This document shows, in pieces, positions 13,065 to 47,734 of a DNA stretch of 64,000 nt; the stretch's first letter is position 1; every line of letters begins with the position of its first letter. The translations under genes and the position numbers were made by a program. Source of the stretch: an uncultured Acidobacteriota bacterium (lineage in GTDB: Bacteria > Acidobacteriota > Vicinamibacteria > Vicinamibacterales > 2-12-FULL-66-21). The DNA lies in contig CAVRXL010000010.1 in assembly GCA_963725145.1 (NCBI GenBank), positions 986,693 to 1,050,692 on the forward strand. Reading direction: 5' to 3'. The notes under the pieces were generated by a model, which saw only the letters and a program-made list of their open reading frames with translations, was not told where the DNA came from and ran no database searches.

Positions 13065-13314
13065 CCCTCACGAATGGAGGAACATCACGCGGCTGCTCAG
13101 CCGCATTCGCCGTGATTTCCGTTGCCGGAGATAGAGAGCTTCCCCTGCGGCGGGTGATCGTTCGCAAAAAATAGCCGAGGGGAGCGCAGATTATCGGCCC
13201 GTTGACCGACCGGCGCAAGAGCGTTCTTGTGAAACTTGCTGGTCACTCACAGGTGGGGAATAGTCACGCAGACGAAGGACTTTTCTCAGCTCCGCGCGGG
13301 AGGAAAGTGTGGCG

Positions 13315-19629: not shown

Positions 19630-22600
19630 CTACGGCTCGGGTTGGACCCGCCTCGCAATCCCGAATTCGCCTACCGCGAATCCGTTCGCTCCAGCTTCCG
19701 TCGTCACGACGATGCTGGTGATGGTTGCGAAGTCTGAGTAGAAGGCGAAGCCGCGCGCCCCGCCTTCGCCGTCAATCACGGCTTCGGTGCTCGTTTCGAA
19801 TACCTCGCCGTCGCTCGTCGTGATCGTGAAAAGGAACGGCTGACGGGTATTCGGTTCAGCATAGAAGTAAAACCCGGTCGTTCCTGCAGGTAGCGTCATC
19901 GTGAGCGTCGTCGCGTCGCGCCCCTCTCCCACATAGTCGAAGTAGACATCACCCGTGAAACCGTGGCTCCAGGTGACCCACACACAGGGCCCTTCGGCCG
20001 TGTTTGCCGTGCGATGGGCGACGGAGGTGTCGAACGTGAGAACACCCCCCAAAGGCGACGGCACGGTGGTCACGTCCGCGCCGCACTCGCGCGTGTCGTT
20101 GAACGGAGTTATCTCCTGCTCGCCGAGCGTGGCGGGATCGCCGAGTGTGGCGGGCGGTGCTTCGACCCCGAGATCCTGGAAGCAGATGGTTATGGGCGTA
20201 ACGACCTTTGCGTAGTTGGAGATCGGGCTCAAGGAACCGTCGTCGAACCTGGCCTTGACGAAGTAGGCGAGGTTCGGCCCGCCGCAGGCAAAGTCGTCGA
20301 AGTATGTCGTCGGTACGCTCTCCTCTCCCTCTTCCAACTCCACGATCGCGAACGGAACGGTCGGGAGAGTCGCAGGCGGGAACGGCGCCTCTGGATCGTA
20401 GGCGAACTTGAAGATCTCATAGGAGGCGACCGTTCCGAGGCCAGGTGCCTGCCAGTCGAGTCTCACAGGCAGATCACCATCGCCCTCGGTCACGCATTCG
20501 CCCTCGCCGTCGGTCAGGCAGGCTTCAAGCTCGATCGGCGCGGGTGGAGCATCGCCCGCCATCGCCAGCACGACCTCGAGAGGGATTTCGTCGAAGGACT
20601 CGCCTTCGGCACCGACATTCGTGTCTCCCAGTCCGAATGCGCCGCGGCCGGTGTCGCCGCGTCCGGTATCGCCGCGTCCGGTATCGCCACGGCCGGCAGT
20701 CCCCGTATCGCCGCGCCCGGTGTCGCCGCGCCCGGTATCGCCACGCCCGGTGTCGCCGCGCCCGGTGTCGCCGCGCCCGGTGTCACCACGCCCCGTGTCG
20801 CCGCGACCGACGTCGAGGGACATTGGCCCCACCATGAGCGTGCTATCCGAGTCCTTGCTGATGAACTGTCCCCCGACATTTCGCCTGATGCCGAGCTGAT
20901 TCAGACGAATGGCGGCCCATTCGTTCTCGCTCGACGCCAGCGTCGTGGGGCTGCCGTCGAAGTTGACGTCTTGTGTGAACGAGGGGGCCTGGGTGTCCAG
21001 CGTCCCGTCGGAATTCCAATCGATCGGGCCGACGGCCGCGCCGTCGACGCGCACAGACGGAAGATCTCCTGCGAGCAGAATCGTTCCGTCGCAGTGCCTC
21101 GTCGCCGCGGCTGCCAGGCCGTTGAGATTGCTGGTGGCCAGGGGCGCATACCAGCTGGAACGGTATAGCGGTCCCCCTGCCAAGGGAGTATCGAGGAGCG
21201 AAGTCTCGTCGATCCCGACGCCAGGGGCTATGACCTGGCGGGAGTAATCCATCTTGACTTCGCCCTGCAAATTGACCAGTCCGTGCAGCTGATACAGCCA
21301 ATTCATCGTGCTGAGCTGGTGTGGCGCGCAGTTCTTTTTCCTTTCAACCGCCGGGTCGAGCGACGCCGGTCCGCCGTGCGCGAGCTCGAAGCCGTGTCCG
21401 AGCTCATGGAACAACGTGGCGCCCTGATACTGGTCGCTCCCGATCGGCAGCCCATCGGCGTTCAGAAACGCTCCGAGCGTCACCATCCCGTCGCCGCCGG
21501 GGAAATCGTTGATGCCGGAGTTGGTCACAGCCCTGTGGAAGTCCGGGTTGGTCTCCTGGCAGATTTCATCTGGAGTGTCGAGGTCCCCGTCGGCGTCCGG
21601 TCCGTCAACCAGACAGGATGCCTTGGGAATGCCCAGCGCGTGAGCGAACAGCACGTAGCGGTGCGTGTCCATTCGGTTGCTGTCGAATCGCCTCTGGCAC
21701 GTATTGCCGGGCAGATCGCAGGGGTCGTCCCCGTTGGGAAGGAGTGGAGGCGGGTTGAAGACCTCGTCCCTCAGGAATCGAAAGCCGGTCTTCCAACCCA
21801 CCGTCCCGGGAATAGGACCAACCGTAGCATCTGAAAACTGGCAGACGGTCGGATCATTCGGATCCGGGGGGCAAACGGTAATCGATTCATCAATCGCCTC
21901 GCCGCCCCGGGCCAGGTCCGACTGGACAAGAGCACAGCGTGGCTGCCAGGCCGCCTGGCAGGCTGCGGCCGTGGGCAACGGCGGGTAAGGCTGACCGGTA
22001 GCAGGATCGACGTTCGGCGCCTGGTAGTTACCCCCGACGTCTATGTGGACGTTGATGCCGGTGCTTCCATCGGGGTTGTTCACAGGAGCGTTCTTGAACG
22101 CCGTGCTCATGAGGCTCAGCGCCTTCTCGGTGGGCAGGTGTGAATGCGGAGGTCTCGGTACGCCCGCGTATGACGTGACAACGCCGGTGTGCATGTAGCC
22201 AATCTCTACGAAGAGATCCTTCGTCATCGGGTTGGCGCGCATTGCGTGCAGGTCGGGCTGCTTTGGGCTGTTCGGATCCGCTGGATCGATTGGCGCTCCT
22301 CCGGGAGTGCTTTCCCAGACGTCCAGCTTGCCATCCCTGTCCGTGTCCCTGACCGGCGTGTTGAGCACGAGCGCGCTCCAGGAGACGCAATCAGGCACGA
22401 GCAGGCCCGGGTCGACTGTCATGATCGCCGCGCCGTTGTTCTCCTGCAAAGCGACGTTGGCCGTGAAGTTGTCCCACTTGGGGCCGTTCGCGCTTCTGAA
22501 GGGATTCGGGAAGGTCTGGCCGTTGATCTTCAGCTGCTCCGTCAGAAGCAGCCGGCCGTCTCCGACGACATGGGTCATCTTGGCTGACTTGGCACCCTGG

Positions 22601-22791
22601 CTCGCCATTTTCGGGTCATAGAACCCAATCATCCGCTGCGTCCAGGACTGGAACGCTCGCTTGGTGGAACCACCGTCGTAGATGGTGATCCCTTTCAGCA
22701 GCTCGCTCTGGTCCCTGTACAGGACGACCAGGCTGGCGCCGACTGCACGCGGCGCCGTAAGGAACCCCGGTTCGATCGCCGCTCTCGTCAT
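19630..22791 (-). CDS. metzincin-like zinc metalloprotease domain protein with tandem GRGDT repeats (main body; the N-terminus is encoded upstream in shifted frames)
   Basis: Track ORF of 1053 aa. Zinc site LFHELGHGFELAHGG (HExxHxxExxH). Ca-binding-like DTDRDGKLD and DADGDLD motifs. GRGDT x10. The ORF has no signal peptide of its own; the upstream fragment supplies one. Confidence 0.8.
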   Translation of the reverse strand: MTRAAIEPGFLTAPRAVGASLVVLYRDQSELLKGITIYDGGSTKRAFQSWTQRMIGFYDPKMASQGAKSAKMTHVVGDGRLLLTEQLKINGQTFPNPFRSANGPKWDNFTANVALQENNGAAIMTVDPGLLVPDCVSWSALVLNTPVRDTDRDGKLDVWESTPGGAPIDPADPNSPKQPDLHAMRANPMTKDLFVEIGYMHTGVVTSYAGVPRPPHSHLPTEKALSLMSTAFKNAPVNNPDGSTGINVHIDVGGNYQAPNVDPATGQPYPPLPTAAACQAAWQPRCALVQSDLARGGEAIDESITVCPPDPNDPTVCQFSDATVGPIPGTVGWKTGFRFLRDEVFNPPPLLPNGDDPCDLPGNTCQRRFDSNRMDTHRYVLFAHALGIPKASCLVDGPDADGDLDTPDEICQETNPDFHRAVTNSGINDFPGGDGMVTLGAFLNADGLPIGSDQYQGATLFHELGHGFELAHGGPASLDPAVERKKNCAPHQLSTMNWLYQLHGLVNLQGEVKMDYSRQVIAPGVGIDETSLLDTPLAGGPLYRSSWYAPLATSNLNGLAAAATRHCDGTILLAGDLPSVRVDGAAVGPIDWNSDGTLDTQAPSFTQDVNFDGSPTTLASSENEWAAIRLNQLGIRRNVGGQFISKDSDSTLMVGPMSLDVGRGDTGRGDTGRGDTGRGDTGRGDTGRGDTGRGDTGTAGRGDTGRGDTGRGDTGRGAFGLGDTNVGAEGESFDEIPLEVVLAMAGDAPPAPIELEACLTDGEGECVTEGDGDLPVRLDWQAPGLGTVASYEIFKFAYDPEAPFPPATLPTVPFAIVELEEGEESVPTTYFDDFACGGPNLAYFVKARFDDGSLSPISNYAKVVTPITICFQDLGVEAPPATLGDPATLGEQEITPFNDTRECGADVTTVPSPLGGVLTFDTSVAHRTANTAEGPCVWVTWSHGFTGDVYFDYVGEGRDATTLTMTLPAGTTGFYFYAEPNTRQPFLFTITTSDGEVFETSTEAVIDGEGGARGFAFYSDFATITSIVVTTEAGANGFAVGEFGIARRVQPEP
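20621..20812 (-). repeat. coding tandem repeat, 15-nt units encoding GRGDT (7 copies, GTA, 3 copies, then degenerate GRGAF GLGDT)
   Basis: Minus-strand reading: ggt cgc ggc gac acg / ggg cgt ggt gac acc / ggg cgc ggc gac acc ... The protein segment is DVGRGDTGRGDTGRGDTGRGDTGRGDTGRGDTGRGDTGTAGRGDTGRGDTGRGDTGRGAFGLGDTN. Confidence 0.95.
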
Positions 22792-22905
22792 CGTCGGCGA
22801 AAAGCTTCCCCGCGTCTGGTATCTCGAGACGATGCTTCGCCGTCAGCGACTGTTTTCCGGTGCCGGGATCGATCGTCAGGAATCGGAGCGCGTCGACGCG
22901 GTACG

Positions 22906-34730: not shown

Positions 34731-37490
34731 TCACTCCGCCAGGGTGTAGGTCGAAGGCACGGGTCTCAACGGGCGATCGAACCAGAGCGGCCGGCGCAGC
34801 CCGCCCGGCCCTGGGGCCGGCCGGGTTCTGGCCATCCATTCTTTATAGATCTCGTGCGATCGCGCCGTGTCCACCATGATATCCCCGTAACTGTCTGACG
34901 GCCCGGCCTTTTCGAGTCGGACGCGCTGGTGCCAGCAGTGCATCCCGCTGACCGGATCGGGCTGCACCGGGAAGGTCAGGTTCTGATGCACGCCGACCTC
35001 GGTCCACCAGATCCGGCCGCTGTCGGCATCAGTGCTTTGAAACGGCTGCGCGCCGTGCACCTGATGCATCACGTACCGGCCGTTCTCGTCGCGCGCGATG
35101 CGGACGAGCGACGAGGCCGCGCGCGCGCCTCCCTGATCCTCGTGGAGCCGCCAACGTCCGAGGTGGTGCGACATCGCCAGGATGCCGGGCCGGATCCCTT
35201 CGGTCACCCAGGCCCGTGTCACGAAGTGGCCGATCTGCGTTGATACCTTCACGAGGTCACCGGTGGCGATCCCCAGCCGCCGGGCGTCCGCCGTCGAGAT
35301 CCACAGGGGATTGCTCTGCGAGATCTCGTAGAGCCACTTGACCGGCGATCGCGTGTGGATCAGCGTGGGGAGCCGGAAGTTGGGAAGCAGGTCGAACTCG
35401 CCCTCATCCCTCTTCAGCTCTCGCCAGTGAACGTGGCCCGGAACGTACCGAGGGAGCGTGTGCTCGGGCCAGCCCCAGTCGGCGAGCGTCCGCGAGTACA
35501 GCTCGAGCCGGCGGGTGGGCGTGGTGAACCCCGCGCGCGCAACTCCGTCGACGAGCGCGCCGACGACCGCCCCGTCCCGCGTCACGACCTGGCGCCCGTC
35601 GTCCGCGCGCGTGCCGGTGAGCTCGTCTCCCGCGAGCGCGCGCTCGTGCGCGCGGCTGTACGACTTGTCTTCGACCTGGAACACGCCGTACTTGCGCATG
35701 TACGCAAGCGGCGTGAGCCCCTCGCGCGCGGCCGCCTCGGGTAAACCCGGTACGGCGTTCTCGAAGATCCACCGGTAGTACTCGTCGACGGTCACCCGCT
35801 CGCCCGGCCGATACGGCGACTCGAAGAACCGTCGGATCCCGAGCGAGCCGTCCGGATCGATCGCCCAGCTCAGCGCGATCCAGAATTCGTTTTCCTCCCA
35901 GACCTCGCCCGGATTCGCCTCCCACGTCGCCGAGATTTGCTCACCGCGTTTCTCGCGCGCGACCCGCAGGACCGGCTGGCGGAAACCGATCCACTTCGCG
36001 GCGTGCGTCTCCTGGCTCATGACGTCATGCCGCTCGGTGCCGAGGCCCATCGGCAGGACGTAGTCGGCGAACCAGGCCGTCTCGCTCCAGATCGGCGTCA
36101 GCGCGACATGGCACCCGATCAGCGATTCGTCCTGCAGGACCTCCATCCACGTGAAACCGTCAGGGTTGGTCCAGAGCGGGTTGTAGACGCGCGTGAAGTA
36201 CGTGTCCAGCCGCCCGCGTCCTTCCTTGAGGAAGTGCGGCAGGAGGAAGCTCATCTCGAAGAACGCGAGAGGGAACTCGCGGGGGAACAGGAGCTCGTTC
36301 CAGTACCCCGGCGCCGGCGGCGGATTCGGGTGCTTTGGCACGAACTTGTTCGTGACGTGCAGGTTCACGCCGCCGACCGATCCCACCGAGCCGGTCAACA
36401 CGACGAGCAGATACAGACACCGCGTGATCTGCCAGCCCCAGAGGTTTCCAGCGGCGGCGGCGCGCCAGCTGTGCGTCGCGAAGCGGTCCCCCGCGCGCGC
36501 GATCGCTCGTGCCGCCTCGACGATCCGCGCCGCGGCGACGCCCGTCTCCCGCTCGGCGTACTCCGGCGTGAATTCCGCGTACTCCTGGCGAAGCGCGGCG
36601 ATGAAATTGTCGAAGGTCGGCTCGACGCCGGGATGCTCCGACGCGAGATACTCGCGCCAGTTGACCCAGTTCCGGACGAACTCGCGGTCGAAGAGGTTTT
36701 CGTCGAGCAGGATCCTGGCGATCGCAAGCAACAGCGCGCCTTCGGTGCCGGAGTACGCGGGCAGCCAGAGGTCAGCCTTCGCGGACGTGTTCGACAGCCG
36801 CGGGTCGATCACGATGAGCGTCGCGCCGCTCGTCTTGCCTTCCATGATGCGCTGCGCGTGCGGGTTGAAGTAGTGCCCCGACTCGAGGTGCGAGGAGAGC
36901 AGCAGGATCGTGCGGGCGTTGGCGTAATCGGGCGACGGGCGGTCCGCGCCGGTCCACAGGAAATGTCCGAGCCGCGCGGAGGAGGAACAGACGTTCGTGT
37001 GGCTGTTGTGGCCGTCCATCCCCCAGCACTGCAGGACGCGATTCGCGTAGCCGTCCTCACCGGGACGGCCGACGTGGTACATGACCTCCCGCCGGCGCCC
37101 TTCCTGAATCGCGCGCCGGATTCGGCCGCCGATGTCGGCCAGGGCTTCGTCCCAGGTCACGCGGCGCCAGGTACCCGATCCCCGCTTGCCTTCACGCTTC
37201 AACGGGTAGAGCACGCGGTCGGGATCTTCCAGCTGATTCGGCGTCACGACGCCTTTGGCGCAGGTGCGCCCCCGGCTGCCCGGATGAACCGGGTTGCCCT
37301 CGATCTTGCGAACCTCGAGCGTCTCCTTGTCGACGTAGCTGATGATTCCGCACGCCGACTCGCAGTTGAAGCAGATGCTCGGGATGATCCAGTAGCGGCG
37401 GCGCTCCTTCCGCGGCCAGGCCGTGGACTCGTAGTCGGTGTAGTCGTCCCATTCGGAGGGATCGGGATGCGAACGGAAGGGAGTGGTCAT
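34731..37490 (-). CDS. molybdopterin (bis-PGD) oxidoreductase catalytic subunit, no Tat signal
   Basis: The ATG at 37490 overlaps the upstream stop (ATGA). 919 aa beginning MTTPFRSHPDPSEWDDY. FS0 cluster motif CFNCESAC...RGRTCAKG. Mo-ligand region HTNVCSSSARLG. The first 274 aa of track ORF 34731..38312 are an off-frame extension. Confidence 0.85.
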   Translation of the reverse strand: MTTPFRSHPDPSEWDDYTDYESTAWPRKERRRYWIIPSICFNCESACGIISYVDKETLEVRKIEGNPVHPGSRGRTCAKGVVTPNQLEDPDRVLYPLKREGKRGSGTWRRVTWDEALADIGGRIRRAIQEGRRREVMYHVGRPGEDGYANRVLQCWGMDGHNSHTNVCSSSARLGHFLWTGADRPSPDYANARTILLLSSHLESGHYFNPHAQRIMEGKTSGATLIVIDPRLSNTSAKADLWLPAYSGTEGALLLAIARILLDENLFDREFVRNWVNWREYLASEHPGVEPTFDNFIAALRQEYAEFTPEYAERETGVAAARIVEAARAIARAGDRFATHSWRAAAAGNLWGWQITRCLYLLVVLTGSVGSVGGVNLHVTNKFVPKHPNPPPAPGYWNELLFPREFPLAFFEMSFLLPHFLKEGRGRLDTYFTRVYNPLWTNPDGFTWMEVLQDESLIGCHVALTPIWSETAWFADYVLPMGLGTERHDVMSQETHAAKWIGFRQPVLRVAREKRGEQISATWEANPGEVWEENEFWIALSWAIDPDGSLGIRRFFESPYRPGERVTVDEYYRWIFENAVPGLPEAAAREGLTPLAYMRKYGVFQVEDKSYSRAHERALAGDELTGTRADDGRQVVTRDGAVVGALVDGVARAGFTTPTRRLELYSRTLADWGWPEHTLPRYVPGHVHWRELKRDEGEFDLLPNFRLPTLIHTRSPVKWLYEISQSNPLWISTADARRLGIATGDLVKVSTQIGHFVTRAWVTEGIRPGILAMSHHLGRWRLHEDQGGARAASSLVRIARDENGRYVMHQVHGAQPFQSTDADSGRIWWTEVGVHQNLTFPVQPDPVSGMHCWHQRVRLEKAGPSDSYGDIMVDTARSHEIYKEWMARTRPAPGPGGLRRPLWFDRPLRPVPSTYTLAE

Positions 37491-39001
37491 GAGAGTGGCA
37501 CGCTTTGGCCCGCCTCGACCCAGATGTATTCCCAGGCGAACCCGCCCGCGAGCGCGAGCACGGCTGCGGCGGTCGTCGCGGCCGTCAGCGACGGGGTTGC
37601 GAGCAGCAGCGCGAGCGGAACGAGTCCGCCGCCCGCGACCGCGAGTCCCCAGAAGAGCCGAGCGTACGCGCCACGCCGGATCGTGCCGACAGCCAGCTCG
37701 TGATGCACGCTCGGGCTGGGCGACAGCAGCGTCTCGAACGCCAGAAAGACAAGATGCGCGGCGACAGACACGGCGAGGACTCGCACGAGAAACATCGACG
37801 CGGCGGCGTCGGCGTCGACGAATCGTGTGGCGATGAGGAGCGTCGCGGCGCCGGCCGCCGCTGCCTGCGCGAGAAGATCGACCGCCGCGTACGGCCCCTG
37901 CCACAGATCCCGAGCGAGCCCTTGCGCGAACAGAAACCCGGTATAGGACGTCGCGAGGATTGACGCGACGATGGCCGGCACGACGAGCCAGCCGATGAGC
38001 CCGTCGGCGCGCAGCCAGCCGGCCAGCAGCCACAACGTGGCGATCGCTCCGTGGGCGGTGAGAAAGTAGGCGCCCCAGACCATCCAGGATCGCCAGTTCG
38101 GACGGATGAGAATGTAGTAGAACCGCTCGGGACGTTCGAGGTCGGCCACGAGAACGATCGCGGTAAGTATCCCGAACACGACCGCGATCGCCGGCCCTAC
38201 GACAGTCGTGATCGCGTCGCGCCAGCCCAGCCACCAGAGAAAAGCCGACAGGAAGAGGGCGCCGGTCGCGATTCCCTTTGTCAGGAGGTAGATCGCCATG
38301 TCGAAGCCCCATGGCTTCTCGTGGGGGACGTCGTAGTCGACCCGCGGAAGCCCTGGCGCGGCGGGGTCCTCCGTCGGGGCGCCGAGCGGACGCAGGTGGA
38401 CCTGCCCTTCCTTATAGATCAGCGGCCGCGCCGAGATCTCGGGCCGGATGACGCTCTCCTCGGCGCCCAGGTAGAGGACCTTCGGTCCGGTGCCTTTCTC
38501 CGGCTTCCGGACCATGAACGCCTCGCGCTGGTAGATCCGCGACACCTCGCTCGCAGGATCGTCGAGGTCGCCGAAGATCCGGCACTCGGTCGGACACACG
38601 CTGACGCACGCCGGCAGCAGCCGGTTCTCGACCCGGTTCGCGCAGAAGTTGCATTTCTCCGCTGTGCGCGTGTTCGGGTCGATGAACAACTGATCGTACG
38701 GGCAGGCTTCCATGCAGGCGCGACAGCCGATGCAGGAGTCACTGTACAGATCGACGATGCCGTCGCGCCGTTTGAAGAGCGCATTGGTTGGACAGATGCG
38801 CACGCACGGCGCGTCGGTGCACTGATTGCAGAGAACCGGGAAGAAGAACCGTCGCACTTCCGGGAAGACGCCCTTCTCGACCGTTTTGACCCAGCACCGG
38901 TTCACGCCGATCGGGATGTCGTGCTCGGCCTTGCACGCAATCGTGCACGCGTGGCAGCCGATGCATTTGCGAAGATCGATGGCGAACCCGTAGGTTGGCA
39001 T
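37487..39001 (-). CDS. fusion of a 4x[4Fe-4S] ferredoxin subunit (PsrB/DmsB-like) with an NrfD/PsrC-like membrane anchor
   Basis: Track ORF of 504 aa. Cys clusters CIGCHACTIACK, CNQCTDAPCVRICP, CIGCRACMEACP and CNFCANR...CVSVCP are followed by a multi-helix hydrophobic C-terminal half. Confidence 0.85.
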   Translation of the reverse strand: MPTYGFAIDLRKCIGCHACTIACKAEHDIPIGVNRCWVKTVEKGVFPEVRRFFFPVLCNQCTDAPCVRICPTNALFKRRDGIVDLYSDSCIGCRACMEACPYDQLFIDPNTRTAEKCNFCANRVENRLLPACVSVCPTECRIFGDLDDPASEVSRIYQREAFMVRKPEKGTGPKVLYLGAEESVIRPEISARPLIYKEGQVHLRPLGAPTEDPAAPGLPRVDYDVPHEKPWGFDMAIYLLTKGIATGALFLSAFLWWLGWRDAITTVVGPAIAVVFGILTAIVLVADLERPERFYYILIRPNWRSWMVWGAYFLTAHGAIATLWLLAGWLRADGLIGWLVVPAIVASILATSYTGFLFAQGLARDLWQGPYAAVDLLAQAAAAGAATLLIATRFVDADAAASMFLVRVLAVSVAAHLVFLAFETLLSPSPSVHHELAVGTIRRGAYARLFWGLAVAGGGLVPLALLLATPSLTAATTAAAVLALAGGFAWEYIWVEAGQSVPLS

Positions 39002-39034
39002 TCTGTATTCTGGATTCTGAATTCTGGATTCTAG
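39000..39034. repeat. 7-nt tandem repeat ATTCTGN x5
   Basis: attctgt attctgg attctga attctgg attctag. It fills the 37-nt spacer between the methylase stop (39039-39041) and the FeS-NrfD ATG (39001-38999). Confidence 0.9.
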
Positions 39035-39038
39035 ACCA

Positions 39039-42000
39039 TTACCGAAGAGCCTGCCACGCGCTCAGGACCGCGGCACGGCGGCTGGCCGGCACCAGCGGAA
39101 ACGTGTCGAGCACGTGCGAGAGCTCATCCGCGGCGAGGCCGTAGAGCGCCGCGGCACGCGCCTGGGCGCTCGCCGCCGCCTGGTCGTCGTCCGGGTTCGC
39201 TTCAAGACGACACGCCAGTCTCTCCAGATCCGTGTACGCGATCGATCCGCGGTCGGGCCGCGGGACCGGCAGCCGTTCGACGATTGCGGCAGACAGATGC
39301 GTCCCGATCCGCTGGCGGACGAGGAAGTTCGCGATGTAGCTGTTCAGCAGCGCGCACAGCACGCGTTGATCCTTCGTCGGCATCGCATCCTTCAGACAGA
39401 ACACCGTGTGGGTGGTCACGCAGCCCGCGGGCACGATTGCGGCGATCAGCGACAGGCGGTTGCCGGCCGATGCGACGTCGCGATAGGCGAGCCGCGGCCG
39501 AGCGAACCGATCGCCGCCGAGTCGCGCGCGCGCCTCGTCGGCCGGCAGGCTGAATCGCGATCCGCGGAGATCCACGGCGAACGGCGCAAGCTGCTTCCCC
39601 TCGACGATCGGCAGCCCCTCGCCCGGCTGCCGGAATGCCTCCGCATCGTCGGTCGCGTTCAGTTCCCGCCCGAAGCGGGCGCGCCAGCCCTGGACGGATC
39701 CGAGCTGGGGCGCGGCGGCGGCCTTCTCGGCGATCCGAAGGTCGGCCTGAGTGCGTATCTCGGGGATGACCAGCTGATCGCCGGTCAGGCGCGCGAGGAG
39801 CTGAGGCGTGAGCGTCACGGGGAACGCGTCGCGCGGCGCGCCGCCGTCCGGAATGCGATCCAGCGCGCGTGCGTCGCGCTCGCCGAAGCGGCAGGCGATC
39901 GCGCCGGTGCATCCGCCACGCGTCGCGGTCAGGAGGAGGAAGCGCAAGCTCCGATGTATCGGGAAGACGGCCTCGCGATTCTCGAAGCCGACGATCGAAT
40001 CGACGATGGAGCGCTCGAGGAGGTGGCGGCGCAAGGCCGCAGAGCCCTGGTCCAGGGCGAGGCTGGACGGCAGGATCAGCCCAAGCCGTCCCTCGGGCGA
40101 TAGCAGCGACAGGGCTCGTTCGAGAAAGAGTTGATAGAGGTTCGCGTGGCCGCGACCCTGGAGCAGATACAGCCCACTCCCGCGCGTGAACCGGACGAGC
40201 GCTGCGGCATCCCGATGATCGCCGCGCAGCATCTCCCACGGTGGGTTGCCCAGGATGGCGTCGAAACCGGCCGACGGGAGGGGTGCACCCGCGGCGTCAA
40301 AGAAGACCTCGGGGAACTCGAGCGTCCAATGAAGGAAGCGCCTCTCCAGCGCGGTGGCCGCGGCCAGGGCCAGCCGGTTGTTCGCGTGATGAGGGGGAAG
40401 CACACGCGTGCCGCCCCCAATCTCGGCGGCCAGCGCGTCGTATTCGCGCCGATCGGGAGCGCCGGACAGCGCGGGCCAGAACCACGCGGCACACCAGAGA
40501 TCCGCGACTTCGCGCCAGCGCGCCAGCGGCGCGCCGCGCCCCGCGAGGGCGGCGAGCGCGCGCTCCTTTCGACGCACGGCATCGACGGTGTCGTCCGGAT
40601 CTTCCGCGATCCGCGCTCGCCCGACGGCTGTCTGGCCAAGCGATCGTTCGAGGCCCTCCGTGTCGTCGAAAAGATGCGCGCCCTCGTGCCGGGCTCCGGT
40701 CCTCCGCCGTGTCCGTGAGTTCGTGCCGGGTGGCTGGCGCAGCAGATCCGCTGCGGATGCGCCGACGAGGCTGTCTCCGTCGCGAAGCCGATGGTCGAGA
40801 AACGTGAGGGGGCGATCGGCCGCCAGCGTCGCAAGCCAGAGCGAGAGACGGCCGAGCTGCACCGCCGTGGGATTGAGATCGACGCCGAACAGGCAGCGCT
40901 GCGCCACGGCGCGTCTCAGGCGAACGCCCGCCGCAGCCACCGCCGGAGATGACCGATCGCGTGAATCCAGGAGCTCGTCCAGATCCTCCCCGTCGCGAAT
41001 CAGCGCGCGTTCGCAGGCGTCGGCGAGGTAGCGGCAGGCAGCGACGAGAAACGCGCCGCTCCCCATCGCGAGATCCAGGATGCGGAGCGACAGGATCTCG
41101 CGGGCCGAGCGACGCTCGACCAGCGGGTGCAGCGTCCGACGGACGAGGTACTCCGTGAGAGACCGCGGGGAGTAAAACGATCCGGTCTGTTTTCGGGTCG
41201 ATCTGTTCGTGCCCGATGCGTTATCGGTCGTGAGATCCAGGACGCTTTCGTACACGGCGCCGAGCTGTTCAACACCAAGATCCCGATACGAGACGCGGCG
41301 CCGGCCTCCGTCCCCCGAGACGGTGGACAACGCGAGAAGCACCGAGCGCACCGTCGTGTCGTTCACGCGCCGGGACTCGCCGAGCGGAGTGCGGGCGGGC
41401 TCGAACAACCGTCCGTTGAATGGTGTGACGACGAGCTCGCCGGCGTGGCAGCCGGCATGCGCAAGCCGCGACGTGGCCTGAAGCGCCGACCATAGACCGC
41501 GGCTGCATCCGGCCAGGGCCTGCTCGGTCAGCGCGCCGATCGCGTACGCCCTGCGATACGTCGGATGCCACACCGGGACGAGCCCGCGCGCCTCCGCGAA
41601 CAGGAGAAAAAGGATTCGATACACGATCGTCAGCGCCTGATCCGCCGCGCGTGCTCCGAGCGCGCGGGTGAGCTCCCTGACCGAGGCGCGCACGCCGTCC
41701 TCGAGCGCCGCCCCTACCGATACCTGGTGCGCGTCCGAAAGCGCGAGCGCCCGGTCGATGACCGCTCCGCCGCCGCGCGTGAACGCCTCCGCTCGAAGCA
41801 GGCCCCACAGCACGCCGAAGGTACCGGCGTCGCGGAGGACGAGATCCAGGTTGAACTCCAGATATCGCCTCGAGAAAGTGCGGCGCGCGTCGACGATCCG
41901 GAGGTCGCGGCCGTTGTGACAAAGCGCCCACGCCGCTCCAGCGGCGATTCCAGCGGTGACCGCCCCGCGCCAGGCGCTCTCGAGAGGCGCACCCCATGGA

Positions 42001-42317
42001 GCGACCAGTAAGATGATCGAAACGTCCGACCGCCCGATGCCGCTCGACGGCCCGAGCGCAGACGTGAGGTGGCCGGACGGGAGCGGGTCGACGCCCGCCG
42101 CGTGGAAGCCGAGCAGACTCACGAGCGGTCCGGCCGCCAGGTCGAATACGGCGCGCACCGACGAGGCCGGCCCGAGCTCCGAGAGTCCCGACAGAACCGA
42201 CCGGGCGCGCCGCCGGGCGGGCTCTCTCTCCGTCTCGCCGAGCTTCCCCGCGAGCGCGGACGCCAGCTGCTCCTGAAGGAACTGCAGCGAGAAGAGCGAG
42301 CCTGAGAGTCCCCTCAC
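39039..42317 (-). CDS. large N6-adenine DNA methyltransferase of type IIG / BREX-PglX / DISARM-DrmMI architecture (N-terminal nuclease-like domain without an obvious catalytic triad, MTase core, TaqI_C-like specificity domain)
   Basis: Track ORF 39039..42452. I place the start at the GTG at 42317, which overlaps the helicase TGA (GTGA). Motifs: LDLAMGSGAFLVAA (SAM binding), FGVDLNPTAVQLGRLSLWL, ILGNPPWE (NPPW catalytic), and C-terminal LCALLNSYIANFLVRQ...VERLPVP. Confidence 0.85.
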   Translation of the reverse strand: MRGLSGSLFSLQFLQEQLASALAGKLGETEREPARRRARSVLSGLSELGPASSVRAVFDLAAGPLVSLLGFHAAGVDPLPSGHLTSALGPSSGIGRSDVSIILLVAPWGAPLESAWRGAVTAGIAAGAAWALCHNGRDLRIVDARRTFSRRYLEFNLDLVLRDAGTFGVLWGLLRAEAFTRGGGAVIDRALALSDAHQVSVGAALEDGVRASVRELTRALGARAADQALTIVYRILFLLFAEARGLVPVWHPTYRRAYAIGALTEQALAGCSRGLWSALQATSRLAHAGCHAGELVVTPFNGRLFEPARTPLGESRRVNDTTVRSVLLALSTVSGDGGRRRVSYRDLGVEQLGAVYESVLDLTTDNASGTNRSTRKQTGSFYSPRSLTEYLVRRTLHPLVERRSAREILSLRILDLAMGSGAFLVAACRYLADACERALIRDGEDLDELLDSRDRSSPAVAAAGVRLRRAVAQRCLFGVDLNPTAVQLGRLSLWLATLAADRPLTFLDHRLRDGDSLVGASAADLLRQPPGTNSRTRRRTGARHEGAHLFDDTEGLERSLGQTAVGRARIAEDPDDTVDAVRRKERALAALAGRGAPLARWREVADLWCAAWFWPALSGAPDRREYDALAAEIGGGTRVLPPHHANNRLALAAATALERRFLHWTLEFPEVFFDAAGAPLPSAGFDAILGNPPWEMLRGDHRDAAALVRFTRGSGLYLLQGRGHANLYQLFLERALSLLSPEGRLGLILPSSLALDQGSAALRRHLLERSIVDSIVGFENREAVFPIHRSLRFLLLTATRGGCTGAIACRFGERDARALDRIPDGGAPRDAFPVTLTPQLLARLTGDQLVIPEIRTQADLRIAEKAAAAPQLGSVQGWRARFGRELNATDDAEAFRQPGEGLPIVEGKQLAPFAVDLRGSRFSLPADEARARLGGDRFARPRLAYRDVASAGNRLSLIAAIVPAGCVTTHTVFCLKDAMPTKDQRVLCALLNSYIANFLVRQRIGTHLSAAIVERLPVPRPDRGSIAYTDLERLACRLEANPDDDQAAASAQARAAALYGLAADELSHVLDTFPLVPASRRAAVLSAWQALR

Positions 42318-44839
42318 CGCCCTCGGTCCACTCGAGGTCGAGACGTCCTTCCACTTCGTGACTCGGCCCGCGCGACGAGCGCTAGTTCCGGCGGCTCCGT
42401 AACCATGCTTCGCGACCGCTCGAGCCGATCGATCCGTGACGCGAGATCGCACGCGAGCGAGAGGCGGGCGGACTCGTCTGCCTGAGCCCGATCGAGCGCA
42501 CGGCGATCGAAGAGCGCCGGCTGCACCTCATGGTCTTCCTCGGGGCTGGGAGAGCCGATGGCTCGCCAGCGCGCGAGCAGCCGGTCCAGCGCGGCATTCC
42601 GGAACCGCTCAACGTCGCGGAGGCGGGACGAGTAGTACGTGCCGTCGACGTTCTGCTCGGTCGCGGCAACGAGCGTAGAGTCAACGATTCGGCCTGCACC
42701 GTCGCGGATCTCCGATCGATAGACGAACAACGAACGGTTGTCGGACACGAGCCGGTCGAGGCCGTTTCGCCGCCGCGCCAGCCGCGCAGGCGTCAGTTCG
42801 AGCAGAAGAGGACCGCGTTGTGCCGATTCCCTGGCCTTCCGGATCGGGGCGGCCTCCGCGCACGCCCTCGCAGCCAGCCTCTCGATCTCATGGGGAATCT
42901 CTGCATCTTCATGTGTTCGTGCCGTGAGTGGTGACGGCAGTCTGCTGCCGCCGAGGATGGCCTCCGCCACCACCGGTTCCGGCCACACATCGTCGAACCA
43001 CCCTGCCTGACGCGCGCGCCGGATGCGCGCCACGAGGCGTCCCAGCACGAGCGATTCGGCCGTGCCGCGCGCGACCAGGTGCAGCACGTGCGGCGCGCGG
43101 CGCTGGCCGTACCGGTCGACACGGCCCGCGCGCTGCTCGAGTCGAGCCGGGTTCCACGGCAGCTCGAAGTTGATGACCCATCGGCAGCGGGCGTGCAGAT
43201 TCAACCCTTCGCCCGCGGCGTCGGTAGCAAGCAGGAGCGAGACCGTTCCGTCGTTGAGCGCGTTCGTCGCCGCGCGGCGCTCGTCGCGCGACAGGCCGCC
43301 ATGGAGGATCGTGTGCCGGCGGACGGAGGACAACCGGGTCGCGAGGTGTTCCAGCGTGTCGCGATATTCCGTGAAGACGATCGCCGCTTCGCGCGTGCGT
43401 CCGAGCAGCCGCTCCAACGCGCGAAGTTTGCTCTCGCGTGTGACGGAGGCGGCCGCCGCGGCGAGGGCGGTCAGCACGTCTCGTTCGGTCCTGCTATCGA
43501 TGAGGCCGGGTGCGCCAAGCACGGAGTCGGAGACCGTATCGTCGGCTGATGTCTCGCCTTCCTGATCAGGGTCGAACCGCAGCGCGATCTGACGAGCGGA
43601 AGTGTCGCCAGGTTGCTCCAGGAGCGCCAGCCGCCGTTCGATCGTGCGGCCCGCTGCCCAGGCGCTCGACAGCGCACGCTTCCTGAGCACGATCATGGCG
43701 AGCTTCGCCGCCGGCGAGGGTGTCTCGCGCCAGACTCGGGACGTGTAGCGGTCGAGGAGACGATGAAGCCTGCGCTCCTGCGAGGTCAGCCGGATTCTGA
43801 ACAACCGCGTTCGACGGGTCGGGACCTCGGCCCCGAGCGCGGCTCGGGAGCGTCGAAAGACAACGAAGTCGCGATCGACCGTGACATCGGAGGATGGTGC
43901 TCCGGTCGCGCGGAGCGCGGCGTAACCCTCGCGATCCGATGCGAACGGCGTCGCCGTCAGCAGGATGACACGTGCCGCCCGTCCGGCGGCACGATGCAGC
44001 GCCGCCCCTCGCTCGGTTCCCGGGGCGGCGAGATGCGCCTCGTCTGCGATCGCCAGGTCCCACCAGAGTCCGTCGATCCCGTGCAGGACTTCGCGCCGCT
44101 TCAGAAAATCGAAGGACACGACATATACGCCGGGCAGGGACCACGGGTTGACGCCGGGTGGCAACTCCCGCGCGGCTCCGGCCAGAAACGCCGCGTCCGC
44201 GACGATGCACGGCTGTCGGAAGCGAGCGAGCTCGTCGGCCCATTGATCGCGAAGTCCGGCCGGCGTCACGATGAGGACGCGCTCGGCTTCACCGCGCGCG
44301 GCCAGTTCCGCGAGCGCGATCAACGCCTGGACGGTTTTGCCCAACCCCACAGCGTCCGCGATCAGAACGCGCGACGCCGCACCCCGTGCCAGCGCCAGCG
44401 CGGGCTCGAGCTGCCACGGCAGCAGGTCAATCGCCGCGCGGTGCGCCGCCTGGAGTCCGCAGGCGGGCCGCACAGCGGCCGCTTCGCCGGCGAGCGCGCG
44501 CAGCCACGCCCGCCGTGAGACGCGAGGTACATCGACGGGCGCGCCACCAGCGAAGTCGAGTCGGGCGTGGCCACCGACACCCAGCGGCTCGAGACGGTCG
44601 AACGGCGCGAGAAGAACGAGCTCTTGCCTGTCGTTGGACGACGAGATCCCGGCGAGCTGCACCTCCAGGCAATCGCTCCACGGCCTGGTCCCCGCCACGC
44701 GCCACCGACGGCCGCGCGCCGTGACGCGCTGGCCGGCGTGCAATTCCTGCCACATCATCCGCGTCCGTGAAGTGAACTTTCTGCCACGTTCGCGCTCCGA
44801 ACGGGCTCCGACGACGTCGATCGGCAAGCGGAATGCCAC
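42314..44839 (-). CDS. SNF2/RapA-family helicase-related ATPase
   Basis: Track ORF of 841 aa with a GTG start. Motifs: ADAVGLGKT, IADEAHLAA (DEAH), LLTATP, LATDAAGEGLNL, QRAGRVDRYGQ. About 230 C-terminal residues are unassigned. Confidence 0.88.
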   Translation of the reverse strand: MAFRLPIDVVGARSERERGRKFTSRTRMMWQELHAGQRVTARGRRWRVAGTRPWSDCLEVQLAGISSSNDRQELVLLAPFDRLEPLGVGGHARLDFAGGAPVDVPRVSRRAWLRALAGEAAAVRPACGLQAAHRAAIDLLPWQLEPALALARGAASRVLIADAVGLGKTVQALIALAELAARGEAERVLIVTPAGLRDQWADELARFRQPCIVADAAFLAGAARELPPGVNPWSLPGVYVVSFDFLKRREVLHGIDGLWWDLAIADEAHLAAPGTERGAALHRAAGRAARVILLTATPFASDREGYAALRATGAPSSDVTVDRDFVVFRRSRAALGAEVPTRRTRLFRIRLTSQERRLHRLLDRYTSRVWRETPSPAAKLAMIVLRKRALSSAWAAGRTIERRLALLEQPGDTSARQIALRFDPDQEGETSADDTVSDSVLGAPGLIDSRTERDVLTALAAAAASVTRESKLRALERLLGRTREAAIVFTEYRDTLEHLATRLSSVRRHTILHGGLSRDERRAATNALNDGTVSLLLATDAAGEGLNLHARCRWVINFELPWNPARLEQRAGRVDRYGQRRAPHVLHLVARGTAESLVLGRLVARIRRARQAGWFDDVWPEPVVAEAILGGSRLPSPLTARTHEDAEIPHEIERLAARACAEAAPIRKARESAQRGPLLLELTPARLARRRNGLDRLVSDNRSLFVYRSEIRDGAGRIVDSTLVAATEQNVDGTYYSSRLRDVERFRNAALDRLLARWRAIGSPSPEEDHEVQPALFDRRALDRAQADESARLSLACDLASRIDRLERSRSMVTEPPELALVARAESRSGRTSRPRVDRGR

Positions 44840-44881
44840 AAGGAGGAGGTAAGAGGTAGGAGGCGGGAGGCAAGAAGTAGG
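44840..44881. repeat. 7-nt-periodic degenerate repeat AGGYRRG x6, abutting the helicase start codon
   Basis: aaggagg aggtaag aggtagg aggcggg aggcaag aagtagg. On the helicase coding strand this reads as a pyrimidine tract ...cctcctacctcttacctcctccttGTG with no Shine-Dalgarno. Confidence 0.85.
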
Positions 44882-44993
44882 GCCCCCTTGACTGGAGGGG
44901 CCGTGGGGCGCAGCATGGATCGATTCCCCAGAAACTCCGCGCGCGGCTTGCCGCGCCGAAGCGGCTAGTGTCCAGTTACGCCGCGAAGGCGGG

Positions 44994-46405: not shown

Positions 46406-47734
46406 TTAAGAAACCGACTTTGCCGTGACGCGTCGGATCCGGCAGCCGGTCGGATAGGAAATGGTCGCGATTGCCGGCGGGATGCGAAGCACTCCCATAG
46501 GCCCCTCGTCACTTCCATTCGACGAATCTCCATTGCCGTTGGCGTGGCTCGCTTCTGTCTCCTGAAGCCTTCGCGCCCACATCGCGAGCGGCGGAAGCCG
46601 CTGCACGAGGCGAACGGGCCGCGGCGGCTCTGGCGCCGGCGGCGGAGGCTCGGGGATCGAGAACGGCGCCGGAGCCTGAGCGGCCGGAAGCGGAACGTCT
46701 ACCACCACCGGCGCGGCCTGAAACACGCGCGTCTCCTCGACAGGTGGCGTCGGCGGTGGCGCCGGGTTGACGACCGGCGGCGCCAGCACAACGGGCGTCT
46801 CGGTGACCACCGGTGTCTCGTCGATGATCGGGACGTCCGGGATCACCCGAGGCTCGTCGACGACGGGCGCCGACTCGACGAACGGCTTGATGACTCTCTT
46901 CGGCTTGACCTTGGCGAAGAGTACCGACCCGAAGATTTGCGGCTCGGCCTCCGCCTCGGGCTCGGGCGTCGGATCGGCGATCGGTGCGGACCCGACAGCC
47001 TCTTCCTTCGACAGCAGCTCACCGAGTGAGTTCACCGAGTAACCGACCGGCGGCTGCTCCGGAGCTTTCGCGACGACCGGCTCAGGGGCAATCGAGACGA
47101 TCGGCTCCGGAGCCTGGACGACAGGCTCATAAGCCTGGGCAACGACCGGCTCGGGCTCGTACGCGACGATTGGTTCGGGGGCGGCGACGAAAACAGGCTC
47201 GGCCGGCGCCTCTCCGACCATCTCGACGGCAGGTTCAACGGCCCGTTCAGCCGCGGTCTCGGCGGCTGTTTCAGCGGCGCGCCGAGCGGTGCGCTCCGCC
47301 GCGATCTTCGCCGCCTCGGCGTTGGCCTTCAGATCCGCCGCGGTCTTGAGGTAGCCGGCTATCTGCTCGGCGAACACGACGGGGTCGCAGCCCTGGGTCG
47401 GGACATCCTCGGTCTTCCTCTTCCGGAAGCCAAACAGTCCCCGCTTCGACTTCCCGTCTGCCGCATCGGACCACGCGAGCAGTGGGATGGTGAGCGTCTG
47501 GAGGTGTTCGGCCCCCTCGAGGGTCCGCAGATGCGCGATCAGTTCCTCTTCCTCACGCGGTGAAAAGAGAGCCGTGACGAGGATGAGATCCGGCGCCTTT
47601 TTCTTGATGGATGCGATCGCGCCGTCCTTCGAGTCGACGACCGTCAGCTGCGCGCCGGAGACGCGGTCCTTGACCACGTGCGAAAGCGCAGCCGCCTGCC
47701 GCGGGTCCGACTCGATGGCGAGGATGTACGACAC
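46406..47734 (-). CDS. pseudo-receiver (REC-like, lacking the phospho-Asp) protein with a long Pro/Glu/Val-rich repeat region
   Basis: Track ORF of 442 aa. The N-terminus ILAIESDPRQ...APDLILVTALFSP has Thr where the phosphoacceptor Asp is expected. EP(I/V)V repeats: PEPIVAYEPEPVVAQAYEPVVQAPEPIVSIAPEPVV. Confidence 0.6.
   Translation of the reverse strand: MSYILAIESDPRQAAALSHVVKDRVSGAQLTVVDSKDGAIASIKKKAPDLILVTALFSPREEEELIAHLRTLEGAEHLQTLTIPLLAWSDAADGKSKRGLFGFRKRKTEDVPTQGCDPVVFAEQIAGYLKTAADLKANAEAAKIAAERTARRAAETAAETAAERAVEPAVEMVGEAPAEPVFVAAPEPIVAYEPEPVVAQAYEPVVQAPEPIVSIAPEPVVAKAPEQPPVGYSVNSLGELLSKEEAVGSAPIADPTPEPEAEAEPQIFGSVLFAKVKPKRVIKPFVESAPVVDEPRVIPDVPIIDETPVVTETPVVLAPPVVNPAPPPTPPVEETRVFQAAPVVVDVPLPAAQAPAPFSIPEPPPPAPEPPRPVRLVQRLPPLAMWARRLQETEASHANGNGDSSNGSDEGPMGVLRIPPAIATISYPTGCRIRRVTAKSVS

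Follow-up and report, generated by a model that had tools for sequence, protein, structure and literature searches.

A candidate two-gene DNA modification module made of an SNF2 helicase and a PglX-like methylase in Vicinamibacteria

In a 64-kb stretch of contig CAVRXL010000010.1 (hereafter the window), which derives from an uncultured Acidobacteriota bacterium of the order Vicinamibacterales, we examined two adjacent minus-strand genes encoding a Swi2/Snf2 ATPase/translocase of 814 amino acids (42314..44758) and an N6-adenine DNA methyltransferase of 1092 amino acids (39039..42317). Our leading reading, held tentatively and at a little under an even chance, is that this pair forms a sigma-54-transcribed DNA modification module, which is inherited vertically in Vicinamibacteria and is derived from the SNF2 plus PglX-like modification arm of class 1 DISARM, ARMADA and type 3 BREX. 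Judged from its sequence, the methylase has an intact S-adenosylmethionine (SAM)-binding site, an intact NPPW motif and its own target-recognition domain (TRD), and the helicase carries all the ATPase motifs of a Swi2/Snf2 double-stranded DNA translocase. The two genes are always linked, often translationally coupled and co-evolving. A literature search for a stand-alone system of an SNF2 protein and a methylase found none; as far as we found, this stand-alone, lineage-fixed and sigma-54-controlled configuration is apparently undescribed, while the proteins themselves are familiar.

The gene pair and its two products

The mechanical open reading frames (ORFs) at this locus span 42314..44839 and 39039..42452, both on the minus strand. 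As the initial annotation had described, the two genes share a stop/start overlap, GTGA, at 42314..42317 (minus strand), in which the helicase TGA occupies 42316-42314 and the methylase GTG occupies 42317-42315, an arrangement consistent with translational coupling. On the coding strand, GAGGGCGGTGAGGGGA contains this helicase TGA together with the GTG opening the methylase frame; GAGGG precedes the GTGA. The same four-nucleotide overlap was found in two related loci (L001 and L088), and in other relatives the two genes are separated by a gap of 14-76 nt or by a 2.8-kb insertion. The methylase GTG start is also used by a database protein, P0121, which is 100% identical over 1092 amino acids. 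The helicase had previously been read as 841 amino acids from the GTG at 44839. This GTG overlaps the G of a TGGCAT hexamer that is part of a predicted sigma-54 -24 element; the alignment to the DrmD profile starts at helicase residue 34; and a 93%-identical homologue is annotated as 814 amino acids. Because of these three observations, the start was corrected to the ATG at 44758, so that the product opens with MMWQELHAGQ and is 814 amino acids long. The GC content across the pair is 0.69-0.70, near the flank values.

The helicase was characterized using Pfam, PADLOC, NCBIfam, an AlphaFold2 (AF2) model and Foldseek. Its domain order is an N-terminal, Tudor-like beta-barrel, an SNF2 core and a RapA-like C-terminal alpha+beta region. 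Pfam assigned SNF2-rel_dom and Helicase_C, and PADLOC returned DrmD (3.7e-79, 265 bits) and BrxHII (3.7e-60, 202 bits). The NCBIfam equivalog DISARM_DrmD (NF038317) matched over profile positions 3-809 of 1021 with 294 bits versus a cut-off of 610, and NCBIfam RapA matched with 117 bits versus a cut-off of 576. Since both scores lie under their cut-offs, the helicase is, by its profile matches, a homologue of DrmD and of RapA and an equivalog of neither. RapA was also the closest solved sequence (phmmer 1.9e-28), and a Foldseek search with the AF2 model (predicted local distance difference test, pLDDT, 81.5) gave RapA as the best matches over the full length, with about 1040 aligned columns. 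The C-terminal residues (about 230), which had been considered unassignable, are therefore part of a full-length RapA-like architecture. BrxHII has been described as a Tudor / Swi2-Snf2 / inactive restriction endonuclease / alpha+beta protein (PMC12839542), and the modelled architecture of the helicase matches this description.

The SNF2/RapA motif set noted in the initial annotation is present in full: GLGKT (Walker A), DEAH, TATP (motif III) and QRxGRxxRxGQ (motif VI) are invariant in 39 helicase homologues. With motifs I, II, III and VI and a RapA-like domain order, the protein belongs to the RapA/BrxHII subfamily of Swi2/Snf2 ATPases. In the C-terminus, no acidic/lysine set and nothing nuclease-like is conserved among the homologues. 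In the C-terminal linker, which has low pLDDT in the AF2 model, lies a motif, QPALFDRR (42500..42523, minus strand; translation checked), that is nearly invariant across the clade (Q-x-x-L-F-D-x-R), with Q, L, F and R kept in at least 90% of homologues between variable flanks. It resembles the QxxLF beta-sliding-clamp-binding motif, and such a function is speculative. Four distant relatives (L078, L080, L084 and L087) also have QxxLF-like strings, placed elsewhere in the protein. The NCBIfam family 'pilus expression-regulating Snf2 helicase' was rejected for this protein despite the nearby Tad pilus genes (72 bits versus a cut-off of 1100), and a literature search found nothing relevant.

For the methylase, Pfam, PADLOC, TIGR02987, an AF2 model and Foldseek gave a consistent domain layout: an inactive nuclease-like N-domain (residues ~50-160), a helical region (~186-360), a gamma-class methyltransferase core with a long insertion (~400-800) and a TRD (~800-1092). 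Pfam assigned Eco57I and N6_Mtase. The best PADLOC match was DrmMI (1.5e-111, 372 bits), whose best stretch covered methylase residues 371-754 only (profile positions 548-937 of 1347); type IIG models ranked next. These matches and those of the helicase agree with the earlier description of the proteins as DrmD-like and DrmMI/PglX-like. The C-terminal half of TIGR02987 (the Alw26I/Eco31I/Esp3I methylase family) matched residues 859-1087, and an alpha/beta TRD at the C-terminus is visible in the AF2 model (pLDDT 79.5). In Foldseek, BREX PglX/BrxX came top, matching over the full length with about 1000-1080 columns, followed by the orphan methyltransferase CamA, M.BseCI and M.TaqI.

All the methylase motifs quoted in the initial annotation as being of type IIG/PglX style are present, and both the SAM motif (D415/GSG) and NPPW (691-694) are invariant in 39-40 homologues. 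The nuclease-like N-domain without a PD-(D/E)xK triad was likewise borne out. Residues ~54-156 have an alpha-beta-beta-beta-alpha-beta-beta topology like that of a restriction-endonuclease core, and no catalytic D/(D/E)xK was found there in the alignment or the model: the corresponding strands read LTSALGP and IILLVAPW, and the invariant residues of the domain are W108, W116, W130, R140, D143, R146 and R150. The methylase thus combines a gamma-class N6-adenine methyltransferase and a TRD in one polypeptide, as type IIG enzymes do, but has no active nuclease domain fused to them. As noted earlier, no nuclease is evident in the pair, since none of the catalytic residues occurs in either protein.

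Distribution, selection and the putative promoter

Database searches at E <=1e-10 returned more than 2100 relatives of the helicase and more than 4400 of the methylase, the named ones belonging to Vicinamibacterales/Acidobacteria. Five neighbourhoods at 40-82% helicase identity all showed the helicase and then the methylase, with no DrmABC. When species-representative genomes were scanned with an alignment of the methylase, 80 loci came up, about 70 of which are from Acidobacteriota, mostly Vicinamibacterales, with a methylase identity of 43-53% over residues ~3-1090; in loci from other phyla this identity is abruptly lower, at 24-29%. Wherever a locus has enough flank, tblastn places a helicase gene directly upstream of the methylase. 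Two recurrent contexts were found. Context A (about 24-30 loci) has HU, QueF and Smr upstream and often 2-oxoglutarate dehydrogenase E1 (SucA) downstream. Context B (about 15-21 loci, the window included) has an unknown 442-aa protein upstream, and FeS-NrfD/molybdenum (Mo)-enzyme genes, a GAF-kinase and TauE downstream; some relatives have the Mo-enzyme operon between the methylase and the GAF kinase, and others lack it. Across about 70 related species genomes, neither a YprA/DrmABC, PglZ or BrxC gene nor a nuclease was found within 10 kb of the pair. The methylase is therefore a clade-conserved orphan methyltransferase in the sense that it is lineage-wide, sits in a stable context and has no cognate nuclease.

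The more distant relatives, which share 24-30% identity and come from other phyla and from plasmids, occur mostly in ARMADA-type or other defence loci. Four of them (L082, L083, L085 and L086) have 1740-aa proteins with DEAD, Helicase_C and MZB domains in an ARMADA type I arrangement. A hidden Markov model (HMM) of YprA, built from four ARMADA-type 1740-aa proteins, matched only in L082-L086 among the loci, and gave no match in L001-L077 or among all window ORFs of at least 80 amino acids. Its strong match in L084 (966 bits) was to a partial ORF at the locus edge, and this locus also encodes an AAA_5 protein that is McrB-like and has a DpnI-type domain. No YprA-type gene was found in the available flank of L078-L081, of which L079 has an AAA_5 ATPase. 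No close relative was found on plasmids, where identity is 30% or less; the best plasmid relative (30% identity; pMESIL01) lies in an operon of helicase, methylase, a 1838-aa DEAD helicase and an exonuclease beside brxL. The concern that homologues might normally be embedded in complete DISARM or BREX loci hence applies only to the 24-30% relatives, and not to the about 70 Acidobacteriota loci.

In one relative, 89-93% identical and represented by two independent assemblies (L090 and L091), a fusion gene of a major facilitator superfamily transporter and a spermine/spermidine synthase lies between the helicase and the methylase on the opposite strand (6545-9094, minus, in L090). The final ~16 residues of the helicase are replaced by this 2.8-kb insert, despite which the two pair genes are intact. 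The apparent lack of a methylase in L089 was rejected: the full contig has the methylase intact beyond a 2.8-kb insertion.

We computed dN/dS for the window genes against L007 and L001. The ratio was 0.26-0.31 for the helicase, 0.19-0.22 for the whole methylase and 0.27-0.35 for its TRD, compared with 0.05-0.09 for the neighbouring respiratory genes and 0.17-0.21 for the trypsin-like protease. Both pair genes are under purifying selection. The dS of the pair was 0.10-0.12 versus L007 and 0.27-0.30 versus L001, equal to that of the flanking genes, and the pair has therefore diverged together with its flanks. Column conservation in the TRD was 0.58-0.77, equal to that of the catalytic core, so that this domain, as far as the alignment tells, is not hypervariable. 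In E. coli ARMADA, by comparison, most of the variation between islands is reported to lie in armB (10.1101/2025.09.15.676423; PMC13463889). Across 48 loci, the pairwise identities of helicase and methylase were correlated with r = 0.80.

Upstream of the helicase, we found a putative sigma-54 (RpoN) -24/-12 element, TGGCATTCCGCTTGCC (44838-44823, minus strand), which fits the consensus (TGGCAC-N5-TTGC) and has the GG-N10-GC spacing. It is the sole sigma-54 match in the window, where 0.02 would be expected, and is identical in L007, L001, L088 and L089. Of 68 loci, 43 have the pattern [T/C]GG[C/T]A[C/T]-N5-TTGC in the 300 nt ahead of the helicase, compared with about 1.7 expected from control windows, and the density of sigma-54 sites is 2.13 per kb upstream of the helicase versus 0.055 per kb elsewhere in the loci. 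Having GG-N10-GC, a fitting distance and conservation in orthologues, this element is predicted to be a sigma-54 promoter. Thirteen loci (L031, L032, L036, L039, L041, L042, L043, L049, L060, L064, L070, L073 and L075) have, 1.3-5 kb upstream of the helicase and on the same strand, a gene for an enhancer-binding protein with the GAFTGA motif. An upstream enhancer-binding gene is found in many context-A loci, with Response_reg and Sigma54_activat domains in L005/L006. The upstream enhancer-binding protein is a candidate activator of the sigma-54 promoter of the pair; no GAFTGA ORF was found in the 64-kb window. Related loci also show a second cluster of 26 sigma-54-like -24/-12 sites located 3-4 kb upstream of the helicase (bins -3000 to -4000), which implies another sigma-54-dependent gene in the conserved neighbourhood.

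The putative 5' untranslated leader (44759..44812, minus strand), whose transcription start was placed from the promoter position only, is conserved in sequence in the window, L007, L001, L088 and L089. It contains a hairpin, CGTTCGGAGCGCGAACG (CGTTCG-GAGCG-CGAACG; 44803-44787, minus strand), which is identical in five relatives with helicases 81-96% identical at the protein level. Farther upstream, a block, GGAGTTTCTGGGGAATCGATCCATGCTGCGCCCC (44905..44938, minus strand), is kept in the window, L007, L088 and L089, and we infer that it is a candidate bacterial enhancer-binding protein (bEBP) site.

The initial annotation had stressed that 7-nt repeat tracts bracket the pair. Both repeats exist, but they are unrelated and promoter-proximal, and are not boundaries. 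The upstream tract (44840..44881, minus strand), which abuts the -24 element, is a CT-rich heptanucleotide microsatellite (CCTCCTA-like; CCTCCYN x ~5) that was read by eye and was not scored by Tandem Repeats Finder (TRF) in the window. The heptamer is present in about 5 copies in the window, 7.3 in the 96%-identical relative L007 (7415-7465), 1 in L088, and 0 in L089 and L001. Because a change in copy number shifts the spacing between the GGAGTTTCTGGGGAATCGATCCATGCTGCGCCCC block and the promoter in 7-bp steps, expression could be tuned or phase-varied. The other tract, a CAGAAT[C/T] x 4.7 repeat (TRF; 39000-39032), is situated downstream of the methylase stop and ahead of the FeS-NrfD ATG and includes a TAGAAT -10-like hexamer; orthologous loci instead have GATATAGT 8-12 nt in front of this ATG, a spacing that points to an mRNA of the respiratory operon with no leader or a very short one. 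The tract is therefore read as part of the promoter of the FeS-NrfD gene and not as an end of the pair. Heptamer tracts as mobile-element ends were rejected, as the units differ, no related arms were found, each tract is at a promoter and the dS of the pair equals that of the flanks.

Pfam on the window ORFs agreed with the earlier view of the flanks as a respiratory Mo-enzyme operon and a protease. Downstream of the pair are a FeS-NrfD fusion, a molybdopterin oxidoreductase, a GAF histidine kinase, MacB/FtsX and TauE; upstream are a trypsin-like protease and a Tad/Flp pilus operon, with Ser/Thr kinases farther off. Pfam on 20 flanking window ORFs found no DrmA/B/C, PglZ or BrxC, and on 65 neighbour-cluster representatives it found nothing defence-specific. 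Among the PADLOC matches listed, 31 window ORFs gave kinase-type families only (25 of 40 families), and the 65 neighbour-cluster representatives gave generic kinase and sigma-54-activator families only (25 of 44). The matches to PD-T4-6, mad6 and MkoA were rejected as generic Ser/Thr kinases, and those to RtcR as a generic sigma-54 activator. The partners of BREX type 3 / DUF499 / Hma systems (PglZ and BrxC/DUF499/HmaC) were not found in the window or the neighbour clusters either. Pfam, the YprA HMM and PADLOC thus agree with the reported absence of DrmABC and the BREX core from the 64-kb window, an absence that extends to the about 70 related genomes, and none of the annotation libraries searched names a two-gene system to which the pair would belong. 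A ~950-aa gene directly downstream of the methylase in 8 loci, considered as a third component, turned out to be 2-oxoglutarate dehydrogenase E1.

Several other ORFs of the window lie on the minus strand. The unknown 442-aa protein (46406-47734) has no Pfam family and is a syntenic upstream neighbour in about 21 genomes, and a conserved 1070-aa protein (19630-22842) likewise has no Pfam family. The molybdopterin oxidoreductase, as a mechanical ORF of 1193 amino acids (34731-38312), overlaps the FeS-NrfD fusion (37487-39001); since its Pfam domains begin at residue 310 and orthologues have about 924 amino acids, its true start is placed near 37400-37500. At 1-12021, an open frame of giant size (at least 4007 codons), perhaps for a surface or repeat protein and without a PADLOC match, runs past the window start and overlaps a good-looking ORF at 10386-13067 (weak BNR match).

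Proposed role and competing explanations

In the reading that we tentatively favour, an enhancer-binding protein would activate the sigma-54 promoter and both proteins would be made in a fixed ratio. The methylase would then place N6-methyladenine (m6A) in a short and probably asymmetric motif of the host chromosome, on one of the two strands. The SNF2 motor would act as its partner, tracking along the duplex and bringing the methylase to its sites; alternatively, it might clear nucleoid proteins or RNA polymerase and so make sites accessible. Such a role would be comparable to that presumed for BrxHII/DrmD/ArmA in larger systems, and the output would be a methylation mark and not DNA cleavage. 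Given that the pair is fixed in core-genome synteny and that its specificity domain is not hypervariable, the mark is most likely used in DNA transactions of the cell itself, either gene regulation or replication- or repair-linked marking; alternatively, it may label self against non-self for an effector whose gene lies elsewhere. Taken together, the core synteny, the dS equal to that of the flanks, the TRD and the predicted sigma-54 promoter favour domesticated, regulated methylation over mobile defence. A bolder form of this reading, which we consider unlikely though worth stating, is a domesticated chromosomal epigenetic machine in which the motor is needed for m6A on nucleoid-packaged DNA. 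This machine would be a bacterial counterpart of the eukaryotic DDM1/LSH-DNA methyltransferase partnership, turned on by a sigma-54 enhancer-binding protein, maybe tethered to the replisome via QxxLF(DRR) and maybe tuned by the heptamers.

Several points weigh against regulated chromosomal methylation. All experimentally studied homologues (DrmD/DrmMI, ArmA/ArmB and BrxHII/PglXI) are anti-phage, and a literature search for Vicinamibacteria methylomes found none. Every locus was chosen through the methylase, so that prevalence within Vicinamibacteria is not derivable from these counts, and the PADLOC negatives rest on the families listed (25 of 40 for the window and 25 of 44 for the neighbours). 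As 64 kb of the source genome was covered, an effector encoded in trans is possible. The median pairwise identity is only about 46% and is weakly structured by context; what we claim is therefore that the two genes have been inherited together and have long resided here, without a strictly vertical descent throughout the class, and some intra-class transfer may have occurred. Moreover, the pair evolves about twice as fast as the neighbouring respiratory genes, and a specificity-domain identity of about 50% does not prove the same target motif.

A minimal anti-phage or anti-plasmid system is a possible but less probable explanation, in which the methylase would mark self and the motor, alone or with an effector in trans, would block replication of unmethylated DNA without cutting (BREX-like, or with YprA in trans). 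The top profile matches are indeed defence proteins (DrmD, BrxHII, DrmMI and type IIG), and the relatives at 24-30% identity reside in ARMADA-type or other defence loci. ArmA and ArmB are individually required for ARMADA defence (10.1101/2025.09.15.676423; PMC13463889), and in Serratia the deletion of drmD and drmMI abolishes protection from one phage (10.1101/2021.12.28.474362). The stand-alone pair of the initial annotation holds up; nothing in its context suggests a defence island, given the core-genome synteny with HU/QueF/Smr/SucA or with the protease and the Mo-enzyme operon in about 70 genomes. The equal dS of pair and flanks also speaks against defence, as do a specificity domain that is not hypervariable, unlike E. 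coli armB, an expression predicted to be sigma-54-dependent and not constitutive, the lack of an effector domain in either protein, and plasmid relatives of 30% identity or less.

The remaining explanations fare worse. It is improbable that the helicase recycles RNA polymerase as RapA does and shares an operon with an unrelated orphan methylase only for convenience. RapA is the closest solved structure and sequence, but adjacency in every locus with enough flank, the r of 0.80 and the frequent translational coupling argue otherwise, and the same pairing recurs in DISARM-I, ARMADA and BREX-3; besides the NCBIfam RapA score far under its cut-off, the model has one N-terminal barrel, not RapA's tandem pair (PMC12839542). 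A type IIG or split type ISP-like enzyme with a cryptic nuclease in the methylase N-domain or the helicase C-terminus, cleaving in a translocation-coupled manner, is very improbable. The restriction-endonuclease-like topology of the N-domain, the PADLOC type IIG matches and the set of helicase, methyltransferase and TRD, which is that of type ISP, would suit it. However, the catalytic positions read LTSALGP and LLVAPW, with W108, W116, W130, R140, D143 and R146 as the invariants there; the structures nearest to the methylase are those of PglX/BrxX, which are non-nucleolytic, and of the orphan CamA; and the helicase C-terminus, which has no conserved acidic/lysine set, matches inactive RapA domains (PMC12839542). 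We give hardly any credence to a decaying remnant of a class 1 DISARM or ARMADA operon after loss of YprA/DrmABC. Although such operons begin with two genes homologous to the pair, its ORFs are intact with catalytic motifs invariant in 39-40 homologues, it is kept across about 70 species with a conserved promoter, and both genes have stayed intact despite the 2.8-kb insertion between them; the dN/dS of 0.19-0.31 effectively refutes decay.

The SNF2 plus PglX-like pair is a shared, mechanistically unexplained module of class 1 DISARM, ARMADA and type 3 BREX, and the pair described here, being kept alone, intact and under selection, offers a minimal system for the motor's role beside a methylase. 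If regulated chromosomal methylation is true, it would represent an exaptation of a defence module into epigenetic housekeeping and, to our knowledge, the first remodeller-dependent DNA methylase in bacteria. If the pair is protective instead, it would be a two-gene, nuclease-free exclusion system.

Comparison with known systems

Class 1 DISARM, with its DrmD and DrmMI, was reportedly described by Ofir and colleagues in 2018. It provides the best PADLOC and NCBIfam matches and likewise has an SNF2 helicase ahead of an N6-adenine methylase. However, the core of drmA (helicase), drmB (DUF1998/MZB) and drmC (PLD) was not found here, the DrmD score stays under its cut-off (294 versus 610), and the helicase and the methylase are about 200 and 250 amino acids shorter than the DrmD and DrmMI profiles, respectively. 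In the Serratia class 1 system, DrmMI methylates ACACAG, a non-palindromic motif, on one strand (10.1101/2021.12.28.474362).

ARMADA I/II also has an adjacent BrxHII/RapA-like SNF2 protein, ArmA, followed by the PglX-like ArmB, both with the architectures seen here (10.1101/2025.09.15.676423; PMC13463889), and the 24-30% relatives in L082, L083, L085, L086 and plasmid pMESIL01 are such operons. These systems differ in being defined by the YprA-family ArmC (DUF1998/MZB), with ArmD in addition in type II, whereas no YprA match was found in the window or in L001-L077; the ARMADA paper presents the SNF2 plus PglX-like pair together with YprA helicases only (10.1101/2025.09.15.676423). In addition, ARMADA resides in defence islands with variable armB, whereas this pair is in the core genome, syntenic and, by prediction, sigma-54 driven.

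Type 3 BREX (BrxHII and PglXI) and the DUF499 BREX-related/Hma systems (PMC12839542) share with the pair a helicase of Tudor, Swi2/Snf2 and inactive restriction-endonuclease domains together with an N6 methylase, and the nearest solved structures of the present methylase are BREX PglX/BrxX. In contrast, no PglZ, BrxC/DUF499 ATPase, BrxA or BrxF was found in the window and neighbour searches, and this methylase has a long helical N-region, whereas PglXI is described without one (PMC12839542).

The pair resembles type IIG and ISP enzymes (MmeI, LlaGI) in its gamma-class methyltransferase, C-terminal TRD and nuclease-like N-domain, and in the set of helicase, methyltransferase and TRD; it differs in lacking the nuclease residues and in having its motor as a separate Swi2/Snf2 protein and not as a fused domain. 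The orphan methyltransferases Dam, CcrM and C. difficile CamA act alone. Like them, the present methylase is lineage-wide, has a fixed chromosomal context and has no nearby cognate nuclease, and CamA is among its top structural matches; unlike them, it is PglX-like and multi-domain, and is obligatorily linked to an SNF2 ATPase.

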